Positions 3,586 to 62,788 of a stretch of DNA of 64,000 nt are shown piece by piece. A program made the position numbers and the translations under genes. A model generated the notes under the pieces. The model was given only the letters and a program-made list of their open reading frames with translations, was not told the origin of the DNA and searched no databases. This DNA comes from Mobula birostris (lineage: Eukaryota): positions 20,605,820-20,669,819 of the forward strand of contig NC_092396.1 in assembly GCF_030028105.1 (NCBI RefSeq). The letters are read 5' to 3'. How positions within the stretch are numbered: the stretch's first letter is position 1; every line of letters starts with the position of its first letter.

Positions 3586-3675
3586 CAGGCAGGCAGTCGA
3601 GGTGATGATCACATGGGTCTGCTTCAGCCTGGGATGTGATGTTCCCGTTACTCAGGTTCTTAGTGCGACGCTTGT
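3586..3675 (-). CDS. DRAXIN: DRAXIN coding exon 4 (90 nt)
   Basis: ttccttgcag|AC AAG; [31 protein letters not shown]|gtaccc. Confidence 0.92.
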
Positions 3676-11931: not shown

Positions 11932-13289
11932 TTTCTTTGTACGATTAAGCTGAAGAAGAAACAGGCAATACATTTGATTTCAAATGCTGATCGTGGTTTC
12001 TACAACATTCAGGCACGGATTAATGTTCAGCTCTAGATAGACAAAACACTCCCAGTAGTTTAGATGCTATAGTTTAGTGGACATTGTATCTCAGCTGCTG
12101 GAAAGGGTTAGGAGTTCAAATGCCGTTTAGTTCCAGCTGATGTTATTGGAATGATTATGGGAGAAATCCAATTTGTTATAGCGTCCTTGGATGACGCTAA
12201 AGCTGGGGAAAACCAAACTCGGTTGTTATGCAATAACGCCCGCAGGACCCATTCCCCGGTGACAGATGGTGCCTTCAAGAAAGCCGTAAGGGGGGGTGGC
12301 GGGGTTGAGGGGAGTTGGTAAAAACTGACCACTACACCCAGAGCTCAGCTACTACAATGCTCTCATCATAATCATCTGCTCCTGGCCGTCCTGCATTACA
12401 AAATAATTGCAGTAGTTCCCTCCCAACGCAGGACAATAAATATCAGTCGTGCACATACAAACAATACAGACAGGAGCGTCCGCTGTTGTAACCACAACAC
12501 TAACATTTATTTCCCTGGAGTCGGGGAGAGGAAAATCAGGTGGGGCGTTTTGCCCTGGATAGTATTCAATGCTTCCAACTAGAAAACGCATATGCACCCG
12601 TGCATAAAACGAGAACGGGTGTTTGTGTCACGGGTGATCCCACTCCGGGACATATGGTGGCTGAGCTAATGCATGCATGGAACTGTAGTCCATAGTAGGG
12701 GGTGGGGGAAATTTAGAAGGGAAAAAAAATCAATGTGATTGATGAATCAGGAGACTAGGCTTTAGAAACCATGACAAACGAGCACAATACAACACCGCAC
12801 AATAGTTTTGATATTAAAATAGAAAGTGAGTATTCAAAACGCCGCGAAGGTAGTAGATTTGAAGGAGTGGCCATATTCTGAAATGTATGTAAATTTAACA
12901 TCTCAATTCTTTAACTAGTATTTCCCCAGCCCACGGGGATAATATTAATTAATTACAACTTCCCGAGGGGACAGTCTCTCAACTCCCATCTGCTGTAGGA
13001 CCAAACATTTCTTCCAGCAATTTGCAGCATCTTCCATTGTATAGACACACACAACACCGGCGCCCTACCCGCAACCCCCCCCCCAACTCCCCTCCCCACC
13101 TCACCTCCGAAAATTCCACCTCTCCAAAATCATCTCCACCATCATCTACGGAGCTTCAGCTTCCCACTCCCCCCCCCCAACAATCAGAATCACAAAGCAT
13201 TGTTTTCCAAGTTTCGCAGGCATGTGCTTGACCTCCCGTCGGTATCCCCCGCGACTGATCAAATGTTGAATGCTCTGCCAAGGTCCCGC

Positions 13290-20579: not shown

Positions 20580-23500
20580 GTGCAGTTTTAAATATTTTAA
20601 CCAAAGCAACTCGTACCGCTTTGCGTGAATCTTAGATGATAAACATTTTTTTTCTGGTCATTTGTTTGTATTTAATTCTATCCCTGCAAACAGGTAGTTT
20701 GCTGGGGAGATTGTTGGACAGTCATTGATCCTGATGACAGTTCATGAATTTTCAGATTGTGATAAGGAGCAGAAATCACTCCCAGCCCAAGGTGGTTAAA
20801 TCCTTTAGTAGGATGTATTCTAAATTTTGTATGTTCCTGTTTCCATTGCCTGGCTTTCCAGGCTGCACACTATAAACTGCACTGGCACGATCTTACACCC
20901 AGTGAACTGCGGATCTTTTCTTTCTCCAGTGGTTGCAGACGTACTCTGTGAATTTCTGGAAGTGGCTATTCATTTGATTTTGTACGTCAGGGAGGTGTAT
21001 CCAATTGGTATCTTTCAGAAGAGGAAGAAGTACAATGTACCTGTACAGGTAAGTAAGCAGAAACATTGCAAAGTGGATATCCTCATGTTTGCAAAGTGGA
21101 TATTGTTCTGAGGTAGAGATTTGAAGTTTAGGCTACTTTGGAAACTGAACACATAATACGATGCTTTATAAAGCTGCAAATGTGTGGGAGCATCACTGCT
21201 TTCAGATCCCTCTTCAAATCATACACCAACCCGACTTGGAATCTTAGTGCTTCTGTTTTATTTAACCTCCGGATATAAATACTGGAATTCTCTCCCAAAA
21301 CATGACAGTGGGAGTAAATTCAGGAGAATCACAGTGGCAATTCAAGAAAGTGGCTCCCAACATGTAAAGCCAGTTGGGAAAAAGACAATATATGTTGTCT
21401 TTGCCAGTTACACCAAATCCTGCTTAATAAAAATAGCAAATATTAAAACAAAAAATTGTAACTCTAGAGTTTAAGTTTTGTGTGAGCTACTCTTTTGGGG
21501 TTTTGTGCTTTTGAAGACTAGTAATGGCAATAAAGCTGAATGAAGCTTTATTTACCCTTTGAATGCTGTGCTTATTGTAGATGTCGTGTCACCCAGAGCT
21601 TAACCAATACATTCAGGATACTCTGCACTGTATCAAGCCTTTGATTGAGAAGGTGAGAGAAATACTACTTGTTTGCATTTGTCAGAATGTGGAACTGCTT
21701 GTATAAGCACTACCAGTTACTTTCTACTTTACATTATTACTACTCACGTGACTCTTAGAGGCCTGTTATTTTTGTCTCAGTGTATTTAAGATTCTACAGA
21801 AACTAACACTGTGACTAAGTGAGTGGAGACTAGGTGTTCTTTATTTACTGAGTGGCTCAGTCTCCTCACTTAGAAAATAATCATTTGGAAGGATGTTGTT
21901 GCAACAACATTGTAATGTGATGGATAACTGTAGCCCACTTAGTGAAGGGTTCTTCTATTACATTTCATCTGCCTGATTTTGATCTGTGAGCACTAATAAC
22001 TTCACATATAGAATAGTACAGCACAGTAAAGGTCCTCTGGCCCACAATGTTGTGCTAACTTTTTTTTAAATCCATCTATCCATTCATCCAACCAACCATT
22101 TACTGTCTCTGAAATGCTCACCCACCAGGAGATCTATCACCTGACCAGGTTCTTTGCCTAGTCCTTGATCCAGTATGATCTCTGCTCTAGGTGGCCTGTC
22201 TGCGTATTATGCACTATGGCAAATCTAATTGATTTTACCTAAACCAGAAAAAGACCATAAGATATAGGAGCAGAATTAGGTCATTTGGCCCATCGAGTCT
22301 GTTCTGCGATTTCATCATGGCTGATCCAGTTTTCCTCTCAGCCCCAGTCTCCAGCCTTCTCCCCATATCCCTTCATGCCCTGAACAATAAAGAATTTATC
22401 AACCTCTGCCTCAAAAATACACAGAGACTCGGCCTCCACAACTGCCTGTGGCAAAGAATTCGCAGATTCACCACTCTCTGGCTAAAGAAATTACTACTCA
22501 TCTCCGCTCTAAAAGGACTTCCCTCTATTTTGAGGCTGTGCGCTCTGGTCTTAGACTCTCCCACCATAGGAAACATCCCCTCCACATTCACTCTAACAAG
22601 GCCTTTCATCATTCGATAGGTTTTGCTGAGGACACTCCTCATTCTTCTGAATTCTCGTGAATACTGGCCCAAAGCCATCAAACGCTCTTCATATGTCAAG
22701 CTATTCAATCCTGGAATCTTTTTCTGAGCCTCTTTTGAACCCTTTTTCAGTACATCCTTTCTAAGATAAGGGGCCCAAAACTGCTCACAATACTCCAAGT
22801 GACGCCTCACCAGTGCTTTATAAAGTCTCAACCTTACATCCTTGCTTTTATGTTCCAGTCCTCTTGAAATCAGAATCAGAATCCTTTATTATCGCCAAGT
22901 ATGTGGACACATACAGGGAATTTGAAGCAGGGAAAATGAATGCTAACATCCCACCCCGGACTCAACCTGAAAATTAACCTTTAGGGAATCCTACAGAAGA
23001 ACTCCCAAATACCTTTGTGCCTCAGTTTTTTGTATTTTCTCTCCATCCTCTCATTTCTTCTACATGTCTTGACACCATATTCCATCTGCCATTTCTTTGC
23101 CCATCTCCTAATATGTCTAAGTTCTTCTGTAGCCTCTCTACTTCCTCAAAACTACCTGCCCCTCCACCTACCTTCATATCGTCTGCAAACTTTGCAACAA
23201 AGCCATCAATCCCATCATCCAAATCAATGACATATAACATAAAAAGAATTGATCCCAATATAGACCCTGTGGAACCACTAGTCACCAGTAGCCAACCAGA
23301 AAAGGCTCCCTTTATTCCCACTCTTTGCCTCTTGCCAATCGGCCAATGTTTTACCCATGCTAGAATATTTCCTGTAATATCATGGGCTTGGAGCTTGTTA
23401 ATCAGCCTTCCGTGTGGCACCTTGATAAAGCCCTTCTGGTCCAGGTGACCTATCTACCTTCAGACCTTTCAGTTTCCCAAGAACCTTCTGTCTAGTTATG

Positions 23501-26500
23501 GTAACTTCACACACTTCATGACCCCTGACACCTGGAACTTCCACCATACTACTAGTGTCTTGCACAGTGAAGACTGATGCAAAATATTTATTCAGTTTGT
23601 TTGCCATTTTCTTGTCCTCTATTACTACCACTCCAGCGCTGATTCCCAGTGGTCGGATATTCACTCTTGCCTCTCTTTTATACTTCATGTATTTGAAGAA
23701 ACTTTTGGTATCCTCTTTAGTAGTATTGGCTAGCTTACTTTTACTTTTACGTGCTTAATGACATTTTTAGTTGCCTTCTGTTGATTTTTAAATGTTTCCT
23801 AACCCTCCCACTATTTTTTGCTCTATTATATGAGCTCTCTTTGGCTTTTATATTGGCTTTGACTTCTCTTGTTAGCCATGGTTGTGACATCTTTCCTTTA
23901 GAATACTTCTTCCTCTTTGGGATGTATACAGTATATCCTGTGCCTTCTGAGTTGCTTTCAGAAATTCCTGCCATTGCTGCTCTGTCATCATCCCTGCCAG
24001 TGTACTTTTCCAATCAGTTCTGACCAACTCCTCTCTCATGCCTCTGTAATTCCCTTTACTCCATTGTAATACTGACACATCTGACTTTAGCTCTCATTCT
24101 CAGATTTCAGGGTGAATTCGATTATATGATCACTTACCCCTAAGTGTTCTTTTACCTTAAGCTCTCTAATCAATTCTGGTTCATTGTACATCACCCTATC
24201 CAGAATAGCTGATCCCCTAGTGGGCTCAACCATGAGCTGCTCTAAAAAGCCATATTGTAGGCACTCTAGAAGTTCACCCTCCTGGAATCCAGCACCAACC
24301 CAATTTTCCCAATCTACCTGCATATTGAAATCCCCCATGACTATTGTAACATTGCCCTTTTGCTGTGCATCTTCTATCTCCCATTGTAATTTATAGGCCA
24401 CATCCTTACTACTGTTTGGGAGTCTGTATACAACTCCCATCAGGGTCTTTTTACCCTTGCAGTTCCTTAGCTCTATCCACTATGATTCAACACCTTCCAA
24501 CCCTATGTCACCTCTTTCTGATGATTTCACTTTTTACCAACAGGGCAATGCCATACCCTCTGTCTTCCTGCCTGTCCTTTCAATACAACGTGTATTCTTG
24601 GATATTAAGCTCCCAGCTACAATGTTCTTTCAGCCATGATTCATTGATATCTACAACATTATCCCTGCCAATCTGCAACTGTGCTGCAAGTTCATCTGCC
24701 TTATTACATATACTGCGAGCATTCATATATAACACGTTCTTTCCTGTATTCATTCTTTTTGATTTTGTCTGCCGTTTACGTGGCAACTCATCCTGTTGAC
24801 TGCAATTTCGCCCTATCAACAGCCTCTCCTCACTACACATTGCCTCTGTTTATAAACCAGCTACCTCATCTTCAGCACTATTATCCAGCTTTTCTATGAT
24901 ACTACTTGTATTGAAATATATGCAGCTCAGGACACTAGTTGCACCATGTTTAACCTTTTGAATCCTAACTTAGTCTGAGGTTTTATCAACATCTGCCTCC
25001 ACAACCTCTCCACTAACTGTTCTGACACTCTGGTTCCCATTCCACTGAGCTCTAGTTTAAACCCCACAACGCAGCATTAACAAAACTTCCTGCTAAGATA
25101 TTAGTCCCCCTCCAGTTCGGGTGCAAACTGTTCTTTCTGTACAGGTCCCACCTTCCCTGGAAGAGAGCCCAACATTCCAAAACCTTTTATGCCCTCCCTC
25201 CTACACCAACTCCTTTGCCACATATTAAACTGTATAATCTTCCTAGTTCTGGCCTCACTAGCACGTGGCACGGGTAGCAATCCTGAAATCACAATCCTGG
25301 AGGTCCTGCCCTTTAACTTAGCACCTAACTCCCAGAATTCCCTATGCAGAACCTTGTCACTGGTACTCCCCATGTCACTAGTACCTATATGGACCACGAC
25401 TTCTGGTTGTTCACCCTCCCACTTAAGAATGCTGAGGACTTGATCTGAGATATCCCAGACCCTGGCACCCGGAAGGCAACATACCATTCGCGAATCTCGT
25501 TCTCACCCACAGAATCTCCTGTCCACTCCCCTAACTAACGAATCCCCTTTCATCACAGTGTGCCTCTTCCCCCCGAAGAAAAACTAATGTTTTGGAACGC
25601 CAGCTATCTCCAAGCACATCGTCTGAAATTTGGACATCCAATGCTCCTTTCTCATTCAAGTCCTAAGAGTTTTTTTCCTACTGCCATTTGGAAATAACTT
25701 TGTACGGAGAGCAAAAATTCTAGGAGATTCACCACTGGACATTTTACTTAGGGATAAGTAATTGGTGTAACTTGGCTAGCTCAGAACAATTATGTAAAAG
25801 GTCAATGCAAGTCGTTTTTTTTTCTGTTACCTATTCTGTTAACAGTACACTAGTGTATTTGCAGAAACTGTAATTTGAAAAAACTTATCACTCCTCTCCC
25901 CAATATTTTTTGATTTTTGTTTTAAATATTTGGATAATTTTAAACGCAAACAACAGGAATTCTGCAGATGCTGGAAATTCAAGCAACACACATAAAAGTT
26001 GCTGGTCCTGACGAAGGGTCTCGGCCTGAAACGGCGACTGCACCTCTTCCTAGAGATGCTGCCTGGCCTGCTGTGTTCACCAGCAACTTTTATGTGTGTT
26101 ATTTGGATGATTGCTTGGTTGAGATAAGCATTTTATGTGTTGTGACCTGCTCCATTTTGTTTTGTCTTTAGAATGAGGTGGATCGGGTGGTGGTGGTGAT
26201 CCTGGATAAAGAGCATCATCCTGTGGAGCGCTTTGTCTTTGAGATATCTCAACCTCCTCTGCTGTCTGTCAGGTGAAACATTTTCAGTATTCTGTATTCC
26301 TGTACTACTACTGCATGTGACTAAACTATTAATCTTAATCTGAAGCTCGTTACACTTAAGGAAGACAATTCTCCCCATATTCTGAATCTGTCTACATTAC
26401 AAATAGAACATCCTGTGTAATTATTTGGTTAGAACATAATTAGGTTTCTACACATCGTAACCCTAACATGCTTTCTGCACAACCCAATCAAGAAATACAA

Positions 26501-29500
26501 AAGGATAAAACAATTAAATGAGAGTGAATTGGTGCAATTTCTCAGTGGTGAAACCAGAATATATTTTGATTGGCGATGTTTCGAAAGTCTTCTGGTACTG
26601 CTGCTTGTATTACAAGATCTGTGAAGAGTGGTGCAATGGATTTATTTCTATGTCTATGTTAGAATTGTTCTAGATTTTTCCCTGGCAAAATTTGATTTCT
26701 AAGGTACCTTTACTTCAACGTAAAATAATAGTTTCCCGTAAGAATATCTTGTGATTCTTGGGCAACATGTCTAAAGTAGCTTAATTTGGGTCAGAAGGTG
26801 TATTGTGTGGAAGAAATGGAATGGTGTGCTGTTTCTTCGTGCTACTTGAGGTTTGTAAACTAGTGAGCTGTTGTGCCGAGGGCTGATGTACTTTAGCGCA
26901 CTAGTTTCTGCTAGTGAGCTCTGACGGTGGACTGACAGTCACAGAAGTCTGCAGTGCAACAGGTGGTGATTTTGAACACTGCTTCTGCCAGCTCTTCGAA
27001 ACGGCTGCTTAGTTGGTCCCTCGCCCTTGCTTTCCTCCACACACCCCTCATAACCTTGTAAACTCATCCTCTATGAATACATCCAGAGTGGCTAAGGGAC
27101 CTGACTTCCACTTTTCCACAGGTCTTGGCTACCTTCTGTGCAGAAATTTCTCCATGTTCCTTCTTATTATTTTGTCAGTCTATAAACTCTTGTGATTGCT
27201 TTATACAGCTGCAACCACATGAACCTTTCATGTATTCTGTCTGAGGCAAACTCTTTTTTCCATTAGTATGCAGGCAAAATTGCACCTGTGAGTTGTTGCA
27301 TTGGGAACAAATGCACTAGTGAACTGTGGGACTGACTATCAACTACTGTGGGTTTATTGTCTGACTTTCCTTATTTTGTAGCTTAAATAACAATTGAATA
27401 AAATGGATCTGAATTTCTGAAGTGAGAAATAGAAGTAACTGGAAACTGAATTGGTGCAAATGACCAATAGAAGTAAGAACAAGTGCTGACACAGATGTTT
27501 GCCCCAAAACATTGTCAGTTTATTCCCCCCACCCCACAACTCTGCCAACCACCAGATGCTGCTCAGCTGGCTGCATTCCTCCAGCAGACTGTTTATTGCT
27601 CCAGATTCCAGCATCGATAGTCTCTTGTGTCTCTATGGATAAGAAAAGGCCATTCAGCTCCTTGGATGTACTCCACCATTCAGTAGAATCATGGCTGATT
27701 GATTACTAAGATGTAATAGCACGTTTGGAAAATCAACCAGATGAAGCAAGGACAGCATGGCTTCATGAAGGAGCTATTGTGTCTGACATATTAAAGTTCT
27801 TTAGAAGAAGTCTCAACCAAAATTAGAGGGGAAGCAATACATGTACCTGGAAGTCCAGAGGACATTTGACAAGATGCTTGGTGAAATATTTATGTCACAA
27901 CTTGAGAGCCCACCGTATTGGAGGTAATATTGGCATGGATAAAGGATTAGGTAACAGCAAGTAGAGATGGGGGAGTTATTGAAGGTGGCAAACGTATGAA
28001 GTTTATAGGTAGGCTGGGAGAGTAAGGAAAAAAGGTTGGCAAATGGAACATAATGTGGGAAAATGTGAACATTGGTTCTGGAAGGAAGAACAAAAGATTT
28101 CTAAGAGAGAAAAAAAGTTGCCCAAATCCGCAGCATGAAGTACCGAAAGCTGGCACACGAATGCAGCTGGTATTAAGGAAAACTGGTGGAATATAGTCTG
28201 GGGATGTTTCCTGTCATGGAAGAGACTGAAGCCAGAGGGCATGATCTCAGAAAAGGAGTGGAGGGTGAGAGATAACTGGTAAACTATTCCAGTATACTCA
28301 ATATAAGTTTCTTAATTCATGAGTCTATGCAAGTCCTTGGTTCAGGGGACTTATTTAGGTAAGAATAATAAATGCAGTTATTAACAGTGCTGTTAGAATT
28401 CCTTGAATGGATATATATATATATAAAAGGCTTGAAAATGCAATCAAGTTTCACAACTGAGAAGCGACAAAATGCTCAAAGTTCAAAGCAAATTTATTAC
28501 CAAGGTTTGTTCATGTTGCTATGTATTAATCTGAGATCCATTTTCTTTTGGGCATTCACATTACCTTCAAAGAAACAATAGAATCATTGAAGACAATCTG
28601 CAAAGAAAGATGGGCAAACAACCAATGTGTAAAAAACAACAGACTGCAAATACAAAAAGAAAAGCAAATAATAAAAATAAATAAGTGATACATATTTTTT
28701 AGAACATGATTTGCACAGTCCTTGAAAATGAGTCCACAGGTTGTGGAATTAGTGCTGAGGTGATTGGAGTTAACTATTCTGGTTCAGGAGCCTGATGGTT
28801 GAAGGGCAGTAACTGTTCCTGAACCTGGTGTTGTGGGACCCGAGGCTCTTGAAACTCCTTCCTTTTGGCAGCAGCAAGAAGAGAGCATGTCCTGGATGAT
28901 GGGGATCCGTGATAATGGATGGTGCTTTCTTGTGGCAGTGCTCCTTGTAGATGTGTTCAGTGGTGGGGAGGGCTTTTCCTGTGATGAACTGGGCTGTATC
29001 CACCACTTCTGTAGGCCCTTCCATTCATAGGCTTTGGTGTTTCCATACCAGGCTGAGCATAACTCCTGTGTGGCTAGATAACTCAGTATTTCATTTTTCA
29101 TTGCATTTAATGGGCCATGTGTTACTGGTTGTGGCTGATTGTTTTGCTCATGGATAAGCACATCTTTGACCACATTTCTAGGATGGGCTAAGAGATTTAG
29201 GAGAAGGTATAGGAGAAGAATTAGTCCATTTGGCCCATCAAGTCTGTTCTACATCATGGTTGATCAATTTCCCTCACAGCCCCCATCTGCTACTTTCTCC
29301 CTATATCCATTCATGCCCTGATAAATCAAGAACCTAAAGCCTGTGCCATTAGAGGAAGTGGTTAAAAGGGAAAATACAGAATTTGAAAGATACTTACGTT
29401 GCACAATTGGATTTTTCCGTGACTTGATCTTTTTTCTGTTTTGTAGCTCTGACTCATTGCTGTCCCGTGTTGAGCAGCTCCTTCGAGCTTCAATTCTGAA

Positions 29501-32500
29501 GATCAGTGTCTGTGATGCAATTCTGGACACTAACCCTCCAGGTAGACATTTGATTGTAGTGCTTTTGTTGTACATTCACTGTTATAGCAAGCTAAGATGA
29601 CAGAGAATCTGACTGGATTGAATCTAATGTTGGGAGTGAGATCGTTTCTTCTCTAATAGGGAATTTATTTTTTCCCCTTTCTCTCCTGAAGGCATTTAAT
29701 TTTCTTGGGTTTGGTTTCCTGGGTTTCCATTACTTTCCAGAATCTGTAATTAGAATTGAAACCAAGAGATATGTGTGTGTTAGCTAAACTGTTTGGCTAG
29801 TTATTTTCTTGATATAAATTCCCTGAAGTTCCTTCTGACTACGGCACCTAGAGGCCTGCTAATGGTCAAGAAATAACAAAATGATAAACGATAGACCTGT
29901 TAGTCCGATAGCACTTGCTGTGAAAATACTGAAATTAGGAAATTGGTTACAGATAATTGGAAATTTGTAGACAGAGATGACATGCTTTTGTTAAGAGTAT
30001 CTATTTAACAAATCTAATTTGAGACCGTTGTGTCTAGATAACAGTATTTGATTTCCTTGTATTTAATGGGCCATGGCTGTGGCTAATTGTTTTGCTCATG
30101 GATAACTGCATCTTTGACCTCATTTCTTGGATGGGCTAAGTGACTTAGACTACAAGATATAAGAGCAGAGTTAGGCCATTTGGCCCATTTAATCTGCTCC
30201 AGTATTTCATAATGGCTGGTCTATTTCCCTCTCAGCCCCAATCTCCTGCCTTCTCTCCGTTTCTCTTCATGCCCTGACTGATCAAGAATCTATCAACCTG
30301 TGCCTCAAATATACCCAATGACTTGGCCTCCACAGCCACCCGTGGTAATGAATTCCACAGATTCGCCACTCTCTGCTTAAAGAAATTTCTCCTCATTTCC
30401 GTTCTAAACGGACGCCCCTCTATTCTGAGGGCCCTGTCCTCTGGTCTTCGACTCCGCTACCGTAGGAAATATTCTCTCCACATCCACTCTGTCAAGGCCT
30501 TTCACTATTCGATATGTTTCAATGAGATCTCTTCCCCCACCCCACCCCCCAAATTCTTCTGAATTCCAGTGAGTACAGGCCCAGAGCCATCAAATGCTCT
30601 TCATATGACTTGTACCAGTGAATCCATTTCTTGCTTCTGTTACTGGACTCTGAATGGAGCTCAGTGGTGGAACGCAGACATGATGGGAAAACTTTAAAAA
30701 AAAACTGCAAACTGCTGGAAATCTGAAATGAAAACAAAACGCTGGAAAAATTCAGCAGGCTAGGAAAGAGGAAGAGGTAATGTTTCGGATTTAGGACTGT
30801 TCATTAGAACTGATGAGGATTTGGGAAACCCATCTCTGCAATTATGTGGCAGCAAGACTGGTATAAAGTCAGAGGTCAGGATTTCCAACTTGAAAGTGAG
30901 GGAGGAAGAATATTTAAAATTTTATTTTCTTATTTTACTTTGTTTAAATGTTTTTATTTATTATGTCTGGAATGTATTTTAATTACTTTTAAAATTTAAA
31001 ACTTTTCGTAATTGTGGTATTTTAATAGTCTCTGAACATCAGATGTATTGAAACTCCTACAGAGCTTTACAGTCTTTGAGAGGAGCTGAGGCTCTGCCAT
31101 CTACCTGCTGTAAAAATCCGCTGGAGTTTGAGGGCAAGGCCTCGGGTATTGGCTTACCTTCTCTTTGCCAGACCATTCTGGGAGTAGTGAATCCTTGTAA
31201 GCTTGGAATAGGTGTGGGGAAGAGTATGACTGGTGTATGGTTGAATTCAGTGCAATGTGGAAGTTGTTAACACAAAATAAGGGCAAACTAGTTTTGGAGC
31301 AATAGAGGACTGGTAAGGGATGATATAGAGGAGGAATAAATGGGTGATTTTCAAGATGTAAACAGTCTGTCAGGGTTCTGCAAGAATGTACTCTGGGATT
31401 TTGGTTATTTACAATACATTTTATGATGTAGATGAAAGAATAATGTATTAGTTTAAATATGTATGGGAAAGTAAACTGTGAAGCAGATACAGCTTTAAGG
31501 ATGGGTTAAGTGAACAGGAGAAGGTGGTGTTGCAAATTATGATGTTCATCATTTGATAGGCAGACCAGAAATCCAGTGGCCCATTGAGTGCTGATCTGTT
31601 TTAATGTTGTTGGTCTGGGGAGAAAATTACTGAAATACTGGAGGACGGGGAATACAGAAGAAATCATCAAAACTTACCAGCTTGCTGAATGCAGCTGTGG
31701 TGTTTGCATTCACTCAGCCAGTGAAAGTGGAGTTCAGCGTATGAGAACATACAGTAATAATCCCATTTAACCTATTGAGTTAGCACATTTGTTCCCAGGA
31801 ATACATCCTGAGTAATAAGATACTAGTTTAAATGTTAGTGTTCAGTTGGTTTGATGGAGCAGTTGGTTTGGTGTGTGAAACACCTAGGCCCATCAAGTAG
31901 TTGGGAAGGCAACAGCAAGTTCACTTTTGAGAGGTGTTTGTCTACGTATGGGGATGTCTTTCTGCAATGACTACTGTGAGACTTCATTTGGAGCACTATC
32001 TGCATTTTCGTTTCTGTACAAAATTATACCTGGAAATGATACATTTGGATTCACTGAGTTGATCTCTGGGACGTGAAGATTGTCATTTAAGGATTGATAG
32101 AGTAACTTTTATCCATTGGAGTCCTGAATTATAGAGATGATCTCATTGTAACACAAAGGATCTGAGTGGAATTGGCAGGTACGTGGCAAAAAGCTGGGTT
32201 TTTTTGGCACGTAGCTGACAATCTCTCTCAGATCCTTTGGAGTGCCAAGAACTAAGAATCATAGCTTCAGGATAAAGGTTCACTATTTAGTTCTGAGAAG
32301 AGGAAGTCTTCACTCAGGGGGTTGTAAATCTTGGCAGTTTATATCAGTGGAAAACGGTTGTTCAGTTGAGTGCAATCAAGACAGATTTTAAAATATTTTT
32401 AGTTGAGAGGTTTTTTTTAAAAAAGCAAATGATTGGGCAGGAGAGAGCACCAGTGCTGCTTTTTGGATTATTGATTTTGATTTTTTATTCGTAACTTTTG

Positions 32501-35500
32501 CTGCTGTTCCAGAAGTTTGAGAGATTTAACGGGCCAGCAATTGAGCCTGGTATGTTCCAGGGCGTCTGACTCAATGCCAGGATTAATAAGTCATGCTAAC
32601 GGGGGAGTATGAGAGTTTCAAGAGCTGTGTTGTAGTGCTGGATCTGAATAGTGCTGTTTATTTCTAGGCTGTACCTTTACTGTGCTGGTTCATACAAGAG
32701 ATGTTGCCACTCGGAACATGGAGAAGATTCAGGTGATAAAGGTGAACAATCTTTTTAGGTAGACTTTACAATGGTTTGCGTGCTTAGCATGACATTTATT
32801 GATACTTGTATGCAGTTACTCTTGCATATATACTCAATGGGGGAGAGATTTTCCAAACGGCACTGAGTACTTAGAATTCAGACTTTGCTCTCTCTGCTTA
32901 GACTATCTATGTCCATTTTCTTCTCTTAGTGATTGCTCTCTCCTCTTTTAAAAAAAAATACAGCTCTTGTTCCCACCTAAAACTTCATTCTGGTAGAAAG
33001 AATAGAAAATACTCAACAACAACAAAAAACAATTTTAGTAACTGAAAATGTTGATCATGTCTGATTTTATATACGTGCAGGTATTGCAACCATATCTAGT
33101 GATTGGAGATGCGCCAACAAATGGTTATCTCTAACGCCCTCAACCCCCTTAGCATCTCAAATCACTTCTGTCTTGGCCAAAGTCAGAAATCAACAATGTC
33201 ACTTGTGACCCTTAACTCATGACCTATTGTTCCAGTCTCACCCAATCCCAGTGGAAAAAGCCTGCTTACATTCACCCTTGCTGTACCCCCCTTAATTTTG
33301 TTTACCTCTATCAAATCTTCCCTCATTCTCCTACACTCTAGGGAATAAAGTCCAAAGCCCTATAATTCAGGTCCAAAGATCCTGGCAACATCCTTGCAAA
33401 CGTTTTCTGCACTCTTACAATCTTATTGATATTTTTCTTGCACGTAGGTGACTAGAACTGCACTCAGTACTCCAAATTAGGCCTTACCAACGTCTTATAT
33501 GTACAACTTCAACTTAACATCCTAACTCCTGTACTCAATACTCTGATTTATGAAGGCCATTGTGCCTTAAGTTCTTTTTACAACCCTATCTGGATGTGAT
33601 TCCTTGATCTGGGAATACAAATCAAGGAATTATGGTTCTGTATTCCCAGATCCCTCTGTTCTACTGCACTTCTCAGTGCTCTAACACTCAGAGTTTAAGT
33701 CCTACCCTGGTTTGTCCTCCCAAAGTGCAACACCTCACAGTTGTCCGCATTAAATTTCATCTGCCATTTTTCAGCCCATTTTTCCAGCTGCTCCAGGTCC
33801 TGCTACAAGCTTTGATAGCCTTCCTCACTGATCATTACACCTTGGTCTTGGTGCCATCTGCAGATTTGCTGATCCAGTTAATCACATTATCATCCAGATC
33901 AATGATAAATAGATGACAATCATCAATGGACCCAGCACTGCTCCCTGTGACACACCATTAGCCACAAGCCTCCAGTCAGAGAGGCAACCATTTACTACCA
34001 CTGGCTTCCTCCATGAAGTCACTGTCTAGTCCAATTTACTACCTCATCTTGAATGCCGAGTGAACCTTCTTGACCAACCTTCCATTTAGTTGTCAAATGC
34101 CCTGCTAAAGTCCATGTAGACAACATCCACTGCCTTGCCTTCATCAATTTTCCTGATAACCCCCTCGAAAAACTCTATAAGATTGGTTAGATATGGCCTA
34201 CCGTGCACAAAACCATGTTGACCATCCCTAATCAGTCTCTGTCTATCCAAATACTAATATATCCAGTCCCTTAGAATACCTTCCGATAACTTGCCCACTA
34301 CTGATGTTAGGCTCACTGATTTATAATTTCTAACTTATTCTTAGAGACTTTCTTAAATAATAGAACAACATTAGCTATCCTTCACTCTGCTGGCACCCCA
34401 CCTGTTGCTAAGGACGTTTTAAAAATCTGCTAGGGACTCTGGAATTTCTGTTCTGGCCTCCCAAAAGGTTGGAGGGAACAGCTTGTCAGGATTTAGGAGA
34501 TTTATCTACCCTAATTTCCCTCAAAACAGCATCCTCTCTAATCTGTGTAGAGTTCACGACGTCCATGCTGTCCATAGACTGCATGTCCATCTCCTGAGTA
34601 AACACAGATGCAAAATATCCAATTAAGAGCTCCCCGTCTCTCTCAGTTCCATGCATGGATGAGTACTCTGATCTTCAAGAGAACCAATTTTGTCCAGTGC
34701 TATCCTTTTGCTCTTAATATATCTTGGGATTCTTCTTCACCTTGTCTGCTAGAGCAACCTCATGCCGCCTTTTTGCCCTCCTGATTTCCTTCCTAAGTGT
34801 TCTCTTATACTTCTCAAGTACCTCATTTGTTTCTTCCTGCCTGTACCTGCTATGCAACTCCTTAATATCTCTCAAAAACCAAGGTTCATTAAACCTGTTA
34901 TCGTTGCGGTTTATTCTGACAGGAACATACAAAATCTGTACTGTCAAAATTTCACCTTTGATGGCCTCCCACTTACGAAGCACACTTTTGGCAGAAAACA
35001 ATGTGTCTCAATCTACTCTTGCCAGTTCCTTTCTGATACCATCAAAATTGGCCTTTCTCCAATTTAGAATATCAACCTGAGGACCAGACCTATCCTTCTC
35101 TATAATTATTTTGAAAGTAATGGCATGATCACTCGATGCAAGGTGTTCCCATTCACGAATCTCCGTCAGCTACCCTGTCTCATTCCCTAATAGGAGATAC
35201 AGTTTCTCACACTCTCTAGTTGGGACTTCTATGTATTGATTAATGAAACTTTCTTGAATACATTTGACAAGCTCTATCCCATCTAGCCCTTTTAGAATAT
35301 GAGAGTCCCAGTCAATATGTGGAAAGTTAAAATCACCCTCCACAACCGTGTGTTTGTTGCAACAATCTGCAGTCTCTCTACAAATTTTCTCCTAAATCCC
35401 ACTAATTCTAGGGTGGTTTATAATAGAAGCCCGTTAATGTGGTCATCCCTTTCATATTCCGTAGTTCCATCCATATAGCCGCAATAGACAAGCTTTTCAG

Positions 35501-38235
35501 TTTGTTCTGCCTGAGCACTGCCTTGACACTTGCTCTGACTACTAATACCACCCCTCCATCATGTCTAAAACAATGGAACTCTGGAACATTAAGCTATCAG
35601 AACTGCCCCTCCTGTAACCAAGTCTCACTAATGGCTACAATGTCATAATTCCACGTGCTGATCTGTGCCCAAAGCTCATCCTGCCTTCCTACAATACTTC
35701 TTGCATGAAGTATACATAATTCAGAACATTAGTCCCACTATGCTCAACATTTTGGTTCCTGATTTTGTAGATGGACTTAACAACATAGTTCCCTACAACG
35801 GCTCCACTAACTGCTCTGTTAATCTGGTTCCCACATCCTTGCAACTCCAGTTTAAACCTTCCTCTGCAGCACTAGCAAACCATTCTCACCAGGATATTAA
35901 TCCCCCTCCAATTCAGGTGCAAACCGTCCCATCTGTACAGGTCCCAGCTTCCCTAGGAGAGAGCCCAATGATCCTAAAATCTGATGCCATCCCTCCTGTA
36001 CCATCTCCTCAGCCATGTGCTAAACCATATTATGTTCCTACTTTTGGCTTCCCACATATCAGTGAGTAATCCTGAGAACACAACCCTGGAGGTCCTGTCC
36101 GTAGCACCTAGGTCCTTGAACTCACTTTGCAGAACCTCCTCACCTTTCTACCCATTGCATTGGTACCAATGTTGACCACAGACAATAGGTGCAGGAGTAG
36201 GCCATTCAGTCCTTCGAGCCAGCACCATCATTCACTGTGATCATGGCTGATCACCCACAATTAGTACCCTTTTCCTGCCTTCTCCCCATATCCCTTCATT
36301 CCGCTATCTTTAAGAGCTCTATCTAACTCTTTTTTGAAAGAATCCAGAGAATTGGCCTCCACTGTCTTCTGAGGCAGAGCATTCCACAGAATCACAACCC
36401 TCTGTGTGAAAAAGTTTTTCCTCAACTCCGTTCTAAATTGTCTACCCCTTATTTTTAAACTGTGGCCTCTGGTTCTGGACTCCCCCAACATCGGGAACGT
36501 TTCCTGCCTCTAGCGTGTCCAATCCCTTAATAATCTTATATGTTTCAATCAGATCCCCTCTCATCCTTCTAAATTCTAGTGTATACAACCCCATTCGCTC
36601 CAATCTTTCAACATATGACAGTCCCACCATCCTGGGAATTAACCTCGTGAACCTACGCTGCTCTCCCTTAATAGCTAGAATGTCCTTCCTCAAATTTGGA
36701 GACCAAAACTGCACACAATACAGCCTCTGGTTACTCCCTCTTCCACTTAACAATGCAGTCAACTCAATCTGAGATGTCTCTGACTCTGGCACTTGGGAGG
36801 TAATGTACCCAATAGGAATCTTGTTCTTGTCCACAGAACCTGCTTTCTTTTTCCCCTAACCATTGAAACCCCTCTCGGTACAGCTCACCTCTTCTCCCCT
36901 CTTCCCTTCTGAAACACAGAGCCGTACTCATTGCCAGAGACCTGACTGCTGCTGTGGCTTTCCTCTGCTAGGTCATTCCCCCCCCCCCCCAACTGTATCC
37001 AAAGTGGTATATGTGTTAATGAGAGGAACAGTCACAGGGATATGCTGAACATCATGCCCATATCTACTAATTCCACTTTCCTGCATATACTCTGTACCTG
37101 GCTCATTGAAGTATCTGTCCAAATTCCTCTTAAATAGCGTTACTGACCCTGCCTCCTCTACCAGCTCATTGCAGATACTAGTTACACTTTATATGAAAGA
37201 TTTACTGCTCAGATCCACTTTAAGCCTTCTTTTCACCTTGTACCTATGCCCTTTAGTTTTAAACACCTCTTCCATGGGAAACCAACATTGATTATCTACC
37301 TGATCTATATCACTCATAATTTTATGAATTTCTTGCATGTCTCCAGGATTCCTTCATTTCAGAGTAGACAGACCCAGCCTATCTGATCTCTCCTTGTAAG
37401 TCAAACCCACCAATCCAGGCAGCATCCTTCTGAGTCTTGTCTGCATCCTTTCCGGCTTAATCACGTACTTATAACCTGGCAACCAGAACCGCACACAGCA
37501 CTCCAACTGTGGCCGAACCAAAGTTTTGTACAATGGGAATTTGGTGTTTCCAACTACTATACTTAGTGCCTTGGCTAATGAAGGCAAATATGCCATATGC
37601 TGCCTTCAGACTGGAGCAATTCAAGGTGGCTGGCCGCCTTCTGGCAAGTAGAGGATAGCCATTTTGCAGTAAACGGAAAATAAGAGTGTTGTCACTTGCT
37701 GCCTTACTGATCTGTTTAATTCCAATCAGGATTTCCCATGGATTCATGCAGATGAACAAGAAGTGAATATGCGAGAACCTAGGCTAATTCCGCTGAAAAC
37801 CATGACTTCAGATATCTTAAAGGTAACACATTTTGGCACAAAATATCTTGTGTTGCATTTGTGGTTGATTTGATAGTAGTTTCTGTGCACTTAAAGGACT
37901 AAGTTCTTCAAAGCTTAATGAAAAATTATCCGAACCTGTTGCAGAATATATATACCATTAGTAGAAAATTCCATAGTTGGGATAATCTATTTGGTTTTAT
38001 AACTATCTGAACCCATTGGCTAAATATGTGAAGTTGTAGAGTTAAGAGTGATTCATTGTGAATGCTGCATCATGGTTTTCATTTTAAGAAAATTACATGA
38101 TTCCTGACTGCTTTAGTCTGCTTTTTGCATGGTACTGTTTATATTCACAGCAGTGCAGACACATGATTCATGTGCCTTTTGTTTCGTTTATAGATGCAAT
38201 TATATGTTGAAGAGAGAGCTCAGAAAATATTTTGA
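20540..38235 (+). CDS. MAD2L2: Mitotic spindle assembly checkpoint protein MAD2B / REV7 (HORMA domain), complete spliced CDS of 636 nt, 211 aa
   Basis: Exon sizes 40+119+72+101+95+74+93+42 = 636, all GT-AG. Translation [70 protein letters not shown]...[27 protein letters not shown] is near-identical to vertebrate REV7. Confidence 0.98.
20930..21048 (+). CDS. MAD2L2: MAD2L2 coding exon 2
   Basis: ttctccag|TG GTT GCA...GTA CAG|gtaagt. Confidence 0.97.
21581..21652 (+). CDS. MAD2L2: MAD2L2 coding exon 3
   Basis: ttgtag|[24 protein letters not shown]|gtgaga. Confidence 0.97.
22252..25570 (-). mobile_element. CR1-clade LINE, long degenerate copy (ORF1 esterase, EN and RT fragments, 3' tail)
   Basis: [20 protein letters not shown] (SGNH esterase ORF1); [15 protein letters not shown] and IVMGDFN (APE); KFADDMK and [19 protein letters not shown] (RT). 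Confidence 0.9.
25940..26105. mobile_element. Penelope-like terminal repeat with inverted partial copy and hammerhead core
   Basis: Perfect 22-bp inverted repeat at 25985-26006 / 26079-26100 enclosing CTGACGA-AGGGTCTCGGCCT-GAAA. Confidence 0.75.
26172..26272 (+). CDS. MAD2L2: MAD2L2 coding exon 4
   Basis: ctttag|[35 protein letters not shown]|gtgaaa. Confidence 0.97.
28478..29055 (-). mobile_element. Rex1-type LINE 3' fragment
   Basis: [14 protein letters not shown]...[36 protein letters not shown] plus tail. Confidence 0.8.
29447..29541 (+). CDS. MAD2L2: MAD2L2 coding exon 5
   Basis: ttgtag|[33 protein letters not shown]|gtagac. Confidence 0.97.
30150..30610 (-). mobile_element. CR1 LINE 3' fragment
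   Basis: [17 protein letters not shown]; 3' tail homologous to 22252-22700. Confidence 0.8.
32668..32741 (+). CDS. MAD2L2: MAD2L2 coding exon 6
   Basis: ttctag|[26 protein letters not shown]|gtgaac. Confidence 0.97.
33200..37040 (-). mobile_element. Degenerate CR1 LINE (RT, EN, ORF1 remnants) with a younger CR1 3' fragment inserted at ~36180-36721
   Basis: [19 protein letters not shown] and [38 protein letters not shown] motifs; ORF1 remnants on both sides of 36180-36721. Confidence 0.85.
37050..37610 (-). mobile_element. CR1 LINE 3' fragment
   Basis: [17 protein letters not shown]. Confidence 0.75.
37730..37822 (+). CDS. MAD2L2: MAD2L2 coding exon 7
   Basis: aatcag|[31 protein letters not shown]|gtaaca. 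Confidence 0.97.
38194..38235 (+). CDS. MAD2L2: MAD2L2 last coding exon
   Basis: ttatag|[16 protein letters not shown]. Confidence 0.96.
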   Translation: MQLYVEERAQKIF

Positions 38236-38806: not shown

Positions 38807-38816
38807 AATAAATAAA
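38807..38816 (+). terminator. Candidate MAD2L2 polyadenylation signal (overlapping AATAAA x2)
   Basis: AATAAATAAA about 570 nt after the stop codon, followed by T-rich sequence. Confidence 0.55.
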
Positions 38817-39176: not shown

Positions 39177-41331
39177 TTCTATCTCCCTTACCATAGCATT
39201 GGAGAGGGTTAGGAACAGACAGGTTAGGAAAGCAGTTAATTGGAGTAAGGGGAAATACGAGGCCTACAGGGACGAGGTCCAGCACCTGGCCGTGTGGTGT
39301 GCTGACAACAACCTGGCCCTTAACACCCAGAAGATCAAGGACCAAGGAGATCATTGTGGATTTCAGGCATGCTAGGAGCCACACTCACATCCCCATCTAT
39401 ATCAACGGAGCTGTAGTGGAGCATGTATCAAGCTTCAAATTCCTTGGTGTCCACATTTCTGAGGATCACACCTGGTCCCTGAACTCCTCCATCCTGGTCA
39501 AAAAGGCACTACTGCGCCTTTATTTCCTGTGGAGCATCAAGAAAGCTCACCTCTGTCCCAGGATACTGACGGACTTTTACCACTGTACCATTGAGAGCAT
39601 ACTCACTGTCACAAAAAACAGTGGGTCAATTGTTTAAGAAAAATAACAAGATGGCTTGAGTCACAAAACTAGATTGAGGTGCTTTCATTTACCTCAAAAC
39701 AATACAAAAGCTGGAAAAAAATATATATATAATCCACTCTCAGACTAAACACAAAAGAAAACTAACCCCAAAACCTTGGTAACCTGAGGCTTATAACTGC
39801 TAAGCCCCTCCTCCTAGACCAACCAAAAGCTAATTAACTCAATTATCCAATTAAAGATGGTATCTTCCACCACCAGCACACCTGTGCAGGTTGCTGCTGC
39901 CTCTATATGAGACAGCTCCGTTCAGCAGCTCTGTTTCTGTTACTGCTGGGGATGAGTATTTTACCGAGTGTGCCATGTGCCACCCATAGTCAGTGACGAG
40001 CCTTCGTCACATTACCTCCCTCCTCTCCTGCAGCGGCAATGTTTGGCAGTCTTGACAGGAAGTCCGCTGTGATGTTCTCCTTGCCTGATTTGTGCCGCAC
40101 ACAGAACCTGAAAGGTTGAAGTTCCAGGTACCACCTAGTCACCCTGGCATTCCGATCCTTCATTGTCTGGATCTAAGTCAGGGCTCTGTGGTCTGTCTGG
40201 AGGTCAAACTCCCTCCCAAGAAGGTAGTACCTGAGGCTGTCCAACGCCCACTTGATTGCCAGACACTCCTCCTCGATTGTGGAGTACCAGGTTTCACAGG
40301 GCAGAAGTTTCCTGCTGAGATATAACACAGGATGTTCCTCACCTGGCTCTCCCTGAGCCAGTACTGCCCCGATGCCTACATCTGAGGCATCCACCTGCAC
40401 CAGGAAGCGGTGTTCAAAGTCAGGACTCTGCAACACAGGGGAAGAGCACAATTTCTCCTTCAGGCCCTGGAAAGCACTTTCACACTCCTCTCTCCATTCC
40501 ACAGGATTTCGGGCCAACTTGTAGGTGAGGTTGGTCAATGGGGCTGCCAGGGTTGAAAAGTGAGGGATGAACCGTTGGTACCAGCCCACTAGGCCAAGAA
40601 GAGACCGGACCTGGGTCTTGGTACGGGGCCTGGGGCTGTTCAGAATGGCCTCAACTTTATCCACCTGAGGCCAGACTTCTCCTCTCCCCAACTGATAGCC
40701 CAGGTAGCAGGTTTCCTGCCTGGCCCACTCACATTTCTGCAGGTTGAGTGTAAGTCCTGCTGCATTGATTGCACCTAGGACTCAACAGAGGTGCTCCAGA
40801 TGTCAGGCTAAAAATAACCACATCATCCAAATAGGCGGCACCGCAGTCCTCACAACCTTGTAGCACTCTGTCCATAAGCCTCTGGAATGTGGCTGGGGCA
40901 CCATGTAAGCCAAAGGGTGTCACCGTGAACTTAACGAGGCCTACAGGGGTCCTGAATGCAGTGAGGGGCTGGGACTGGCTCTCCAGGGGGACCTGCCAAT
41001 ACCCCTTGCAGAGGTCCAAGATGGTGATGTAGTTGGCTCTCCCAATCCTCTCCAGCAGGTCCTCAATCTGGGGCATCAGGTAGGCATCGAAAAATGAGAT
41101 GGCATTCAGTTTCCTAAAGTGAATGCAAATGCGAAGAGTTCAATTCGTCTCTGGCACAATGACAATAGGTCCGCTTGATGCTGGAGCTGGGAGTCATCGA
41201 ACCGTCTGAAAGTGAGTGGAGTAGCCCTATTGTCATTGTGCCAAAGAAGAATGGAACTCTTCGCATTTGCATTGACTTTAGGAAGCTGAATGCCATCTCA
41301 TTTTTCGATGCCTACCTGATGCCCTGAATTG

Positions 41332-41381
41332 AGGCTCCAGTCTCCAAGGAGGTGTGGGTTCGAATCCCACCGCTGCCACCA
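41332..41381 (+). pseudogene. Reverse-transcribed 3' ~50 nt of tRNA-Leu including CCA (extended primer-binding site)
   Basis: AGGCTCCAGTCTCcaaGGAGGtGTGGGTTCGAATCCCACCGCTGCCA-CCA matches vertebrate tRNA-Leu(AAG/TAG) from the anticodon loop to the CCA end. Confidence 0.85.
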
Positions 41382-41550
41382 TATGTCACAAAAAACTGTG
41401 GGTTAATTGTTTAAGAAAAATAACAAGATAGCTTGAGTCACAAAACTAGATTGAGGTGCTTTTATTTATCTCAAAACAAGACAAAAACTGGAAAAAAAAC
41501 ACAATATACATCCACCCTCAGACTAAACACAAAAGAAAACTAACCCCAAA

Positions 41551-41678
41551 GCCTGCCTGCCTGTCTGTACCTTGTTTTACAGCAGTTGGCATCCAGCTTA
41601 ATGGTGCATTACCGCCACCCTCTGCTCCAGAATGTGCACTAGACATACAGTCTAAATCCCTTCACCCAATCGCACATG

Positions 41679-41730
<52 letters not shown>

Positions 41731-42393
41731 AACCAACACTTTACCCTCCCATCTTTGACCATCCTAGTATCCTATTCCTGTTTATTCATCATATTCTATA
41801 AAAAACCCCTGTACCCCTTAAAAATGCCAAAAATACCCAGACTTGTGCTCTCTCACCCATGCCCAGCAACCCTTTTAATGTGAATTCCTGCATCCCCAAC
41901 TCCCTTAATTTATTTCTCATCATCTCTCTCTGTATCCTATACTTCCTGCAACACAAAACTACATGTTCTACTGACTCCTCTTCCTGACATTCCTCACACA
42001 ATCCTGTCTGGTGTTTCCCTATCATTTTCAATGCCCCAGCCTTAACCTAGTCCACACAATTTCCTCTCTTCTGTTTCCATTACCTACCCTAGTAACTGCA
42101 ACACTCTTTTGTATTTGATATAAATGCCTCCCTTTCCCCTCCCTGTCCCATCTTTCTTGCCACATTCAGTTGACTTTTTCCCAGATTACACACTTAACCT
42201 CTGCTTTACTGATACTAATGTGCATTTCCACATTTTCTTTCTTTAACACCCNNNNNNNNNNNNNNNNNNNNNNNNNNNNNNNNNNNNNNNNNNNNNNNNN
42301 NNNNNNNNNNNNNNNNNNNNNNNNNNNNNNNNNNNNNNNNNNNNNNNNNNNNNNNNNNNNNNNNNNNNNNNNNNNNNNNNNNNNNNNNNNNNN
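41551..42393 (-). mobile_element. I-group (Nimb-like) LINE 3' fragment inserted in the 5' LTR; 5' junction lies in an N-gap; contains a (TA)n/(CA)n microsatellite
   Basis: C-terminal CCHC GLCEECQEEESVEHVVLCC..FLRGTG; 3' UTR ggtggcggtaatgcacc; LTR sequence resumes at 42394. Confidence 0.7.
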
Positions 42394-43135
42394 AACCCAT
42401 AGAAACTTGGTAACCTGAGGCTTATAACTACTAAGCCCCTCCCTCTAGACCAACCGAAAGCTAATTAACTCAATTATCCAATTAGAGATGGTATCTTCCA
42501 CCATCAGCACATCTGTGCAGGTTGCTGCTGCCTCTGTATGAGACAGCTCCATGCAGCAGCTCTGTTTCTATTACTGCTGGGGATGAGTATTTTACCGAGT
42601 GCGCCATGTGCCGTCCGTAGTCAGTGATGAGCCTTCGTCACACTCACCAATTGCATTTCAGTGTGGTATGGCAATTGTCCTGTATCGGACCGCAAAGCAC
42701 TCCAGCGTGTGGTGAAAACAGCCCAGCGGATTATCGGCACCCAATTGCCCACCATTGAGAATATCTACCATAAACGCTGCCTGGGCAGGGCGGAAAGCAT
42801 TATCAAGGATGCATCTCACCCTAACCATGGACTTTTTACTCTCCTCCCATCCGGTAGGCGCTACAGGAGCCTCCGCTCTCGCACCAGCAGGCACAGGAGG
42901 AGCTTCTTCCCTGAGGCTGTGACCCTGCTGAACCTCTCATCACAGCACTAAGCAGTATTGCATCCGTATTGTACTGTCTCAGTACTTTTATATTTGTGTG
43001 CTGTAGCACTTTTTTATTCGCAGTTATTTTGTAAATAACACTATTCTTTGCATTTCTGGTCAGATGCTAAACGCATTTTATTGGCTTTGTATCTGTCCTC
43101 GGCACAATGACAATAAAGTTGAATCTAATCTAATC

Positions 43136-43675: not shown

Positions 43676-44400
43676 TAGTCATAGTCATACTTTTTTGTTC
43701 CCAGGGGAAATTGGTTTTCGTTACAGTTCCACCATAAATAATATAGTAATAGAACCATAAATAGTTAAATAGTAATATGTAAATTATGCCAGTAAATTAT
43801 GAAATAAGTCCAGGACCAGCCTATTGGCTCAGGGTGTCTGACCCTCCTGTGACTGAGCAAAGTTTCCATACCAGGCAGTGATGCAGCCAGTCAGGATATT
43901 CTCAATTGTACACCTATAGAAAGTTCTTAGGATTTGGGGGCCCATACCAAACTTCTTCCAACCGTCTGAGGTGAGAGGTGCATTTGTGCAGACCACAAGA
44001 TCCTCAGTGATGTTTATGCAGAGGAACTTAAAGCTGTTTACCCTCTCAACTCCAGATTCATTGATGTCTATAGGGGTTAACCTGTCTCCATTCCTCCTGT
44101 AGTCCACAACCATTGAGGGAAAGGTTGTTTTCTTGACACCACTGTGTCAGGGTGATGACTTCTTCTCTGCCTCATTATTATCTGAGATTAGGGGTTGTAG
44201 TGACGTCAGCAAATTTAATTAGCAGATTGGAGTTGTGTGTGGCGACACAGTTATTGGTATACCGAGAGTAGAGGAGGGGGCTCAGTACACAGCCCTGAGG
44301 GGTACCTGGGTCAGAAGGGCAGAGGTGAGGGAGCCCACTCTTACCACCTGCCGGCATCTGACAGGAAGTCCAGGAAGGATCCAGTTACACAAGGCAGGGT
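43674..44400 (-). mobile_element. Rex1-type LINE fragments (3' tail of one subfamily plus RT interior of another)
   Basis: Tail near-identical to 47472-47640; VVDYRR..VNSFKFL..FYRCTIENILTGCITAWYGN. Confidence 0.75.
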
Positions 44401-44458
44401 GGGCTCGAACCATCAACCTTTTGGTGAACAGCCGAACGCGCTGACTGCGATATTGCGC
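44397..44458 (-). pseudogene. tRNA-Asn(GTT)-derived remnant lacking the acceptor stem
   Basis: Minus strand GCGCAAT..GTCAGCGCGTTCGGCTGTTCACCAAAAGGTTGATGGTTCGAGCCCACCC closely matches the vertebrate tRNA-Asn body; B box intact; both acceptor-stem strands missing. Confidence 0.7.
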
Positions 44459-44559
44459 ATGTTATAAACCTGAAATACCTCGCTGGGATTTTCTGCACTA
44501 GTAGCCCAGATGTTAATAATTCGCGGTGAGGGACACTTTTTTAGAGGACGAGTCTGGCT

Positions 44560-44627
44560 GCCCCTTGCAACGGGAGAGCCAATGAAGTGGGGCGGTCGAG
44601 GCACCGCTAAATCCCGCCCAGCTCGCC
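44560..44627 (+). promoter_or_regulatory. AKR7A CpG-island promoter
   Basis: CCAAT at 44579-44583, GC boxes GGGGCGG at 44589-44595 and CCCGCCC near 44613, immediately before the Kozak-like gccATG. Confidence 0.65.

Positions 44628-62788
<18,161 letters not shown>

Follow-up and report, generated by a model that had tools for sequence, protein, structure and literature searches.

A deleted Gmr1-type Ty3/gypsy element of Mobula birostris with a probably over-copied tRNA-Leu primer and an inverted duplication of reverse transcriptase sequence

Between a pair of long terminal repeats (LTRs) in the genome of Mobula birostris, an inverted duplication of reverse transcriptase (RT) sequence is joined directly to a partial copy of a tRNA. 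How an element with this interior came to be made, and then inserted with a perfect target-site duplication, is the question raised by the locus. The window analysed is the whole stretch of 64,000 nt of contig NC_092396.1 (positions 20,605,820 to 20,669,819, forward strand, assembly GCF_030028105.1), and positions below refer to it. The locus is a retrotransposon fossil – a Gmr1-type Ty3/gypsy element, internally deleted, whose LTRs are paired and whose flanks carry a 5-bp target-site duplication. It probably records one aberrant reverse-transcription cycle of such an element, in which over-extended plus-strand strong-stop DNA began to copy RT RNA, doubled back on itself and returned to minus-strand DNA, with the product fixed in the germ line. 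The neighboring genes, among which exons were matched to a skate protein, are Draxin (3449–11979, minus strand), MAD2L2 (20929–38229, plus strand; seven exons matched, the last coding exon at 38194–38229), and an aldo-keto reductase (44586–54650, plus strand) with a CpG island at about 44400–45100.

Anatomy and class of the element

The element reads on the minus strand, in the order 5’ LTR, TA, tRNA tract, inverted RT, spacer, RT-RNase H, polypurine tract, and 3’ LTR. It is flanked by CTCAC at 39602–39606, within the open reading frame of a host LINE, and by the matching copy at 42643–42647; the LINE frame, found at 39197–39634, resumes beyond the element at 42631–42948. The 3’ LTR (39607–40011, minus strand) is 405 nt long, begins with TGT and ends with ACA, and is adjoined by a polypurine tract at 40012–40030 (minus strand). 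The surviving pol, consisting of RT and RNase H (40012–41169, minus strand), matches Pfam RVT_1 and RT_RNaseH and aligns at 83–87% to the polyprotein P0001. It is broken by a stop in the first arm of the inverted repeat and by a frame break at 40801/40802, where the contigs of the family are longer than the window.

The inverted repeat consists of arm 1 (41061–41169, minus strand), which carries RT N-terminal sequence in the element’s sense and is the putative fold-back copy, and arm 2 (41226–41334, plus strand), in which RT sequence is inverted relative to the element. Each arm is the reverse complement of the other but for 8 mismatches over 109 positions, and they are the longest among the 20 inverted pairs listed for 30000–52000. 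The 56-nt spacer between them (41170–41225, plus strand) is single-copy sequence of the RT N-terminus, collinear with arm 2, and would be the loop of the fold-back. A plus-strand frame at 41169–41333 corresponds to residues 749–803 of the closest polyprotein (84%), while the remaining RT-RNase H is on the minus strand, and the inverted piece begins at 41167–41169 rather than at an ATG.

Behind arm 2 is a 47-nt copy of the 3’ part of a mature tRNA-Leu, from position 38 to the CCA (41335–41381, plus strand), the complement of which is an over-extended primer-binding site (PBS). This CCA-tailed tRNA lies directly behind the 5’ LTR and a 2-nt spacer. The 5’ LTR (41384–42642, minus strand) is split at about 41555–42402 by an insertion of ca. 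850 nt, which includes an assembly N gap at 42252–42393. The insertion has a short tandem tail at 41552–41570 and a Cys/His-rich frame at 41789–42046 (minus strand); a Pfam search of it gave no match, and it presumably resembles a LINE 3’ end.

A sequence-only reading of the locus had described a 109-bp inverted duplication with eight mismatches around a 56-nt spacer, and a plus-strand RT N-terminus opposite in orientation to the rest of pol. Recomputation returned the identical repeat, and the polyprotein alignment agrees on the orientation, with the start refined to 41167–41169. The same reading had gag, PR, and INT lost and the product cleanly integrated. Both points stand – gag, PR, and INT are absent between the LTRs, where RT-RNase H alone is left, and CTCAC is found on both sides.

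The RT and RNase H, Ty3/gypsy-type by Pfam, align at 81–87% to the leading fish-type polyproteins. Of the polyproteins scanned, the closest three all have the order PR-INT-RT-RH, and two of the three have a SCAN gag (the third is partial); gag is absent from the window. In excerpts of two papers, the Gmr1 clade is marked by an integrase that lies upstream of RT (PMC8220671) and by a SCAN-like gag (PMC4592553). INT is deleted in the window, and RNase H directly abuts the polypurine tract and LTR. TG...CA LTRs, a PBS, a polypurine tract, and a short target-site duplication are all present. Like Gmr1-clade Ty3/gypsy elements, the window element has an RT-RNase H that meets the polypurine tract and 3’ LTR, a tRNA-Leu PBS, and a 5-bp target-site duplication, the last of these also seen, by eye, in six of seven intact relatives. 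It differs from them in that the gag, PR, and INT of the SCAN-PR-INT-RT-RH order in the closest polyproteins are gone, the PBS is extended, and a piece of RT is inverted. Because 1047–1184 residues precede the RT motif in 32 long homologs, more than 3 kb of gag, PR, and INT has been lost.

The tRNA tract and its junction with RT

The window matches the tRNA-Leu(AAG) locus L004 at 39 of 44 positions in 41335–41378, and this match is followed by CCA. The comparison set was eight tRNA-Leu-like loci, seven of them called genes (three AAG and four TAG). ARAGORN found no tRNA gene in the window, so the tract is a fragment. Three of the five mismatches to L004 are in the variable tetraloop, one has the letter of another locus in the set (L009), and one is CpG-type. 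The three variable-loop letters are unlike those of all eight loci, among which the tetraloop varies too, and the variable loop of the tract may be that of a host isodecoder.

For a control on the length of the PBS, 42 related loci of at least 4.5 kb were self-compared, and seven had an intact LTR pair and a tRNA-Leu PBS. These seven Gmr1-like relatives are distant, with ca. 50% protein identity, and are eukaryotic DNA inside bacterial bins; none of the family contigs listed crosses the PBS. Their PBS is short, matching the tRNA at 10–14 of the first 18 nt, versus 18 in the window, and at 6–14 of the next 29 nt, versus 24 in the window. None of the seven has an inverted repeat between its LTRs. 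In the window element, the complement of a mature CCA-tailed tRNA follows straight after U5 and exceeds the length of a PBS.

Several bacterial genome bins include intact LTR retrotransposons of eukaryotic origin (loci L010–L016, L025, L056, and L071), whose LTRs are as much as 99.7% identical within a pair; these are host contamination. Two of the loci, L014 (36 nt past the 5’ LTR) and L071 (44 nt past), carry TTAGACCA, a complement of D-loop sequence (5 and 8 of 300 shuffles, respectively) and perhaps a sign of a bipartite PBS like that of Ty1/Ty3. Viral contigs held no relatives and no PBS-like matches; the single match there is not a tRNA gene.

At junction 1 (41321–41334, plus strand), 14 nt directly ahead of the tRNA copy are common to RT and the tRNA anticodon arm, matching at 11 of 14 positions, which bears out the earlier observation that the RT end resembles the tRNA-Leu anticodon arm just where the tRNA copy starts. 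With the wobble base read as G, the RT site ranks first on both counts, total matches (11 of 14) and longest run (8), among the 2288 14-mers on both strands of 40012–41169, a ranking that covers the surviving interior alone (1.15 kb of the internal region). An A at the wobble base leaves it sharing first place in total matches (10 of 14), with a run of only 3. All of the family contigs listed (seven in run X1 and three in run X5, from two other organisms) differ from arm 1 at 41069, and the run with their letter is 9. The chance at a random junction is 1e-4 for a run of 8 and 3e-5 for a run of 9, which argues that the template switch was guided by homology.

The tRNA-only sequence starts at tRNA position 38, beside G37, and the overlap implies copying beyond G37, which we take to carry m1G37 as a modification of tRNA-Leu(IAG). 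Inosine at position 34 yields G in cDNA, and m1G37 is sub-stoichiometric, in the excerpted text of PMC8062790. A wobble inosine copied as G is favored, with the reservation that the G is no proof of inosine because RT supplies the same letter.

In the element RNA, the U5 of both LTRs (41445–41456 and 39668–39679, minus strand) carries the complement of 12 nt of the anticodon arm of the primer tRNA-Leu(AAG). This motif lies 61 nt from the LTR end with a C facing the wobble base, and it could be a second primer contact favoring the inosine isoacceptor; its figure of 1 in 300 shuffles is post hoc. In the seven relatives the complementarity is weak or absent, with 18–293 of 300 shuffles versus 1 of 300 for the window, and a U5-anticodon pairing common to Gmr1 elements is not supported.

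Strand transfers and age of the rearrangement

Junction 2, the putative fold-back point, is a 3-nt microhomology, AGG, at 41167–41169. One family contig (record 7 of X1) is collinear with the window on 41167–41311, and the spacer is therefore native RT sequence, with the AGG common to both orientations. Microhomology of at least 3 nt has a chance of 0.05 at such a junction. In the direction of plus-strand synthesis, the order is PBS, tRNA complement, 165 nt of antisense RT, and then sense RT that begins within the part just made. As judged from the orientation of its parts, the spacer – collinear with arm 2, on the tRNA side – has the polarity predicted for a plus-strand fold-back. A minus-strand fold-back was rejected, as it would leave a loop of the opposite polarity.

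In the proposed cycle, plus-strand strong-stop DNA would have passed tRNA position 58 or so and gone on along the tRNA-Leu primer into the anticodon loop, as the 47 nt ending in CCA suggest; the copying of A58 without error would point to an under-methylated primer. The over-long 3’ end would have been unable to extend at the PBS and may instead have found a partner in those RT codons of the element RNA that resemble the anticodon arm, where the overlap is found, in a run that would be perfect if a wobble inosine had been copied as G. Reverse transcriptase would then have copied 165–168 nt of RT RNA backwards, seen now as the inverted RT. The new strand appears to have folded back over 3 nt with a 56-nt loop, to judge from the geometry of the repeat, and to have copied itself, presumably in an intramolecular step. 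The resulting sense copy would have paired, within the 109-nt arm, with minus-strand DNA, a substitute for the usual plus-strand transfer that left out gag, PR, and INT. A linear DNA with two whole LTRs would have been inserted by the particle’s integrase, as the 5-bp target-site duplication indicates. The RNA template could have been the same one, just ahead of the minus-strand polymerase, or a co-packaged copy, the sequence being alike for both; in the Gmr1 order, the RT priming site is ca. 1.05 kb from the polypurine tract.

The earlier proposal for this DNA was that strong-stop DNA was over-extended, switched onto pol through microhomology, and folded back. These steps agree with the junction sequence, the polarity of the spacer, the controls, and the dating, and what the proposal lacked was a third switch, onto minus-strand DNA. 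This switch is needed because copying would otherwise continue into the tRNA and LTR, and the 109-nt arm supplies homology for it.

The same reverse-transcription event might have run without a fold-back, the strand jumping directly to minus-strand DNA at the 3-nt microhomology in two switches rather than three. This route takes fewer steps to an identical final sequence, and it suits a junction 2 overlap of just 3 nt and a nascent end for which no stable self-priming structure is predicted (−4.7 to −6 kcal/mol, away from the fold-back site). However, about 5 kb of minus strand would have been available, and the landing fell within the 165 nt just copied, or roughly 3% by length; a direct jump is considered unlikely. 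The fold-back followed by rejoining is preferred.

The arms differ at 8 of 109 positions (7.3%, 95% interval 3–14%) and the LTRs at 27 of 414 (6.5%, 95% interval 4–9%), with a Fisher p of 0.83 in what is a weak test. The similarity of the two divergences had been judged by eye before; as computed, they are compatible with a single event. Three of the eight arm mismatches fall in one codon at the tRNA junction. Three differences in arm 1 lie within 10 nt of each other (41142–41151), 18–27 nt from the fold-back point, which may be chance. Unlike arm 2, arm 1 deviates from the homologs at five codons.

The arms also share three letters that are absent from most family contigs (41078/41317, 41243/41152, and 41250/41145, among the 40 of 211 differences listed). 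Two of these alter residues kept in 76 of 77 and 72 of 77 homologs (those in register, of 120). Shared changes at conserved residues call for a template that was degenerate or from a subfamily, for CpG decay in parallel, or for conversion from arm to arm. They look as if they came from an aged copy, as would be expected in a two-stage history – a normal full-length insertion, followed by repair of a later chromosomal break with over-extended strong-stop cDNA and microhomology template switching. Against this, the arm divergence is not below that of the LTRs, of the shared letters two are of CpG type and one also occurs in X1, in a minority (about 5 of a depth of 185), and the distance of 4–7% between window and family leaves room for 1–3 shared letters per 109 nt. 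Two stages are very unlikely, and a single aberrant cycle is the reading carried forward.

Independent sequence was compared in four runs of other organisms; the best of the 24 runs listed contains 0.34 of the window’s words, and no RNA run is among those listed. The family is present in the compared runs, with distant matches only in X22. No piece crossing either junction was found in the four runs, whose contigs show presence and not absence, and none of the nine joints listed in them changes strand, versus one rearranged copy in the window, where an amplified non-autonomous derivative of the LARD or TRIM kind would be expected in several copies. The locus is known from the assembly alone, in repeat-rich surroundings and ca. 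0.9 kb from a gap of the short-read type (42252–42393), and a fold-back chimera of the library or a mis-join of family copies would be in keeping with that. But the arms differ at eight sites, unlike those of a fresh chimera, the LTRs and target-site duplication are in register, and a CCA-tailed tRNA at the place of the PBS, overlapping RT in its anticodon arm, is a signature of reverse transcription rather than a product of an assembler. An artifact is highly improbable, and the aberrant reverse-transcription cycle remains the favored origin of the structure.

The hairpin and known reverse-transcription products

A transcript of the inverted repeat was said to form a long hairpin, and the fold is indeed predicted to be very stable – −198.4 kcal/mol, z = −23, with none of 200 shuffles as good. 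It has a 39-bp perfect stretch and is possible on either strand. A microRNA precursor was rejected as an explanation, since the best Rfam score of 49.5 bits, against a gathering threshold of 100, was a generic hairpin match; all hairpin matches in the Rfam search of the window were below threshold. Elsewhere in the window, at 32154–32239, is a 39-nt inverted repeat, 85% complementary, with an 8-nt loop.

It is possible that siRNA would be produced from the hairpin. A stronger claim is that transcription, such as read-through from MAD2L2, is the reason the hairpin persists, with siRNA against the family as the product; as a claim about later function, it is compatible with an origin by reverse-transcription error. 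The predicted fold (−198 kcal/mol on the plus strand, with its 39-bp perfect stretch) and the position of the locus, 2.8 kb downstream of the MAD2L2 stop and on the strand of that gene, are in its favor. However, the arms have decayed at the rate of the LTRs and show no trace of selection on their pairing, the MAD2L2 mRNA would already terminate at an AATAAA at 38807, and the ca. 850-nt insertion parts most of the 5’ LTR, the promoter side, from the hairpin. Retention for such a role is very doubtful.

Retroviral deletions and deletions-with-insertions caused by strand-transfer errors were reportedly described by Pathak and Temin in 1990 and by Pulsinelli and Temin in 1991 (J Virol). The latter class, which is named in excerpts of PMC3187697, resembles the window element in having a large deletion starting at the PBS, inserted sequence, and short overlaps at the joints. 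The window element differs in its double switch of polarity, which leaves an inverted duplication, and in the position of the overlap in the anticodon arm. Excerpts of further papers (PMC9278108, PMC13174262, and PMC12789967) likewise belong to a literature on deletions with insertions, proviral inversions, and tRNA/LINE-1 chimeras. Chimeras of tRNA halves and LINE-1 also have a partial tRNA, broken near the anticodon, joined to a retroelement, often antisense; as far as the excerpts of PMC13174262 go, they are made by TPRT or twin priming, whereas the window element has its own primer tRNA in PBS position and integrase-made ends. Defective HIV-1 proviruses with an inversion and a large deletion were also integrated (two inversion cases in the set of PMC9278108), with no tRNA read-through described in the excerpted text.

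The closest likeness in copying of the primer is to HIV-1 and MLV. In excerpts of PMC13191261 and PMC8599865, strong-stop DNA ends at positions 58, 55, 54, and 37, with read-through when m1A58 is missing, and the product of HIV-1 in vitro that ends at position 37 is minor and not competent for transfer (PMC13191261). These over-extended plus-strand products, with ends at 55, 54, 37, or the 5’ end, are like the window element in that the primer was copied past 58, the tRNA-only part in the window running from 38. They were made in vitro or in cell lines and are transfer-incompetent at 37, while the window copy is that of a Ty3/gypsy element with tRNA-Leu, probably rescued and then integrated in the germ line. 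Dead-end strong-stop DNA is also described for Ty3 in part of PMC5371799, and m1A58 is variable in zebrafish eggs and embryos, according to an excerpt of PMC11417395 dealing with tRNAs other than that of the window. A literature search, with thin coverage of older virology and subscription papers, returned no genomic description of a tRNA over-copy combined with inverted RT.

The structure is rare and mechanistically legible, in a non-coding fossil that is a single dead copy. Read-through of the primer to the anticodon loop is described in vitro as a dead end; the copy in the window suggests that it can be rescued by non-canonical switches and integrated in the germ line, and the anatomy of this copy fixes the order of the template switches. 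A wider reading, tentative and rather unlikely, is that over-copied primers of this family, whose U5 would also pair with the anticodon arm of tRNA-Leu(IAG), are repeatedly rescued at these RT codons, and that the junction records the state of the germ-line primer (A58 unmethylated, G37 passed, and inosine 34 read as G). If so, the same junction 1 would recur independently, strong-stop fidelity could be read out in vivo, and an LTR element would have a route to making hairpins against itself. If further copies exist, the positions and letters of their junctions would be a fossil assay of tRNA modification and of the behavior of reverse transcriptase in vivo.
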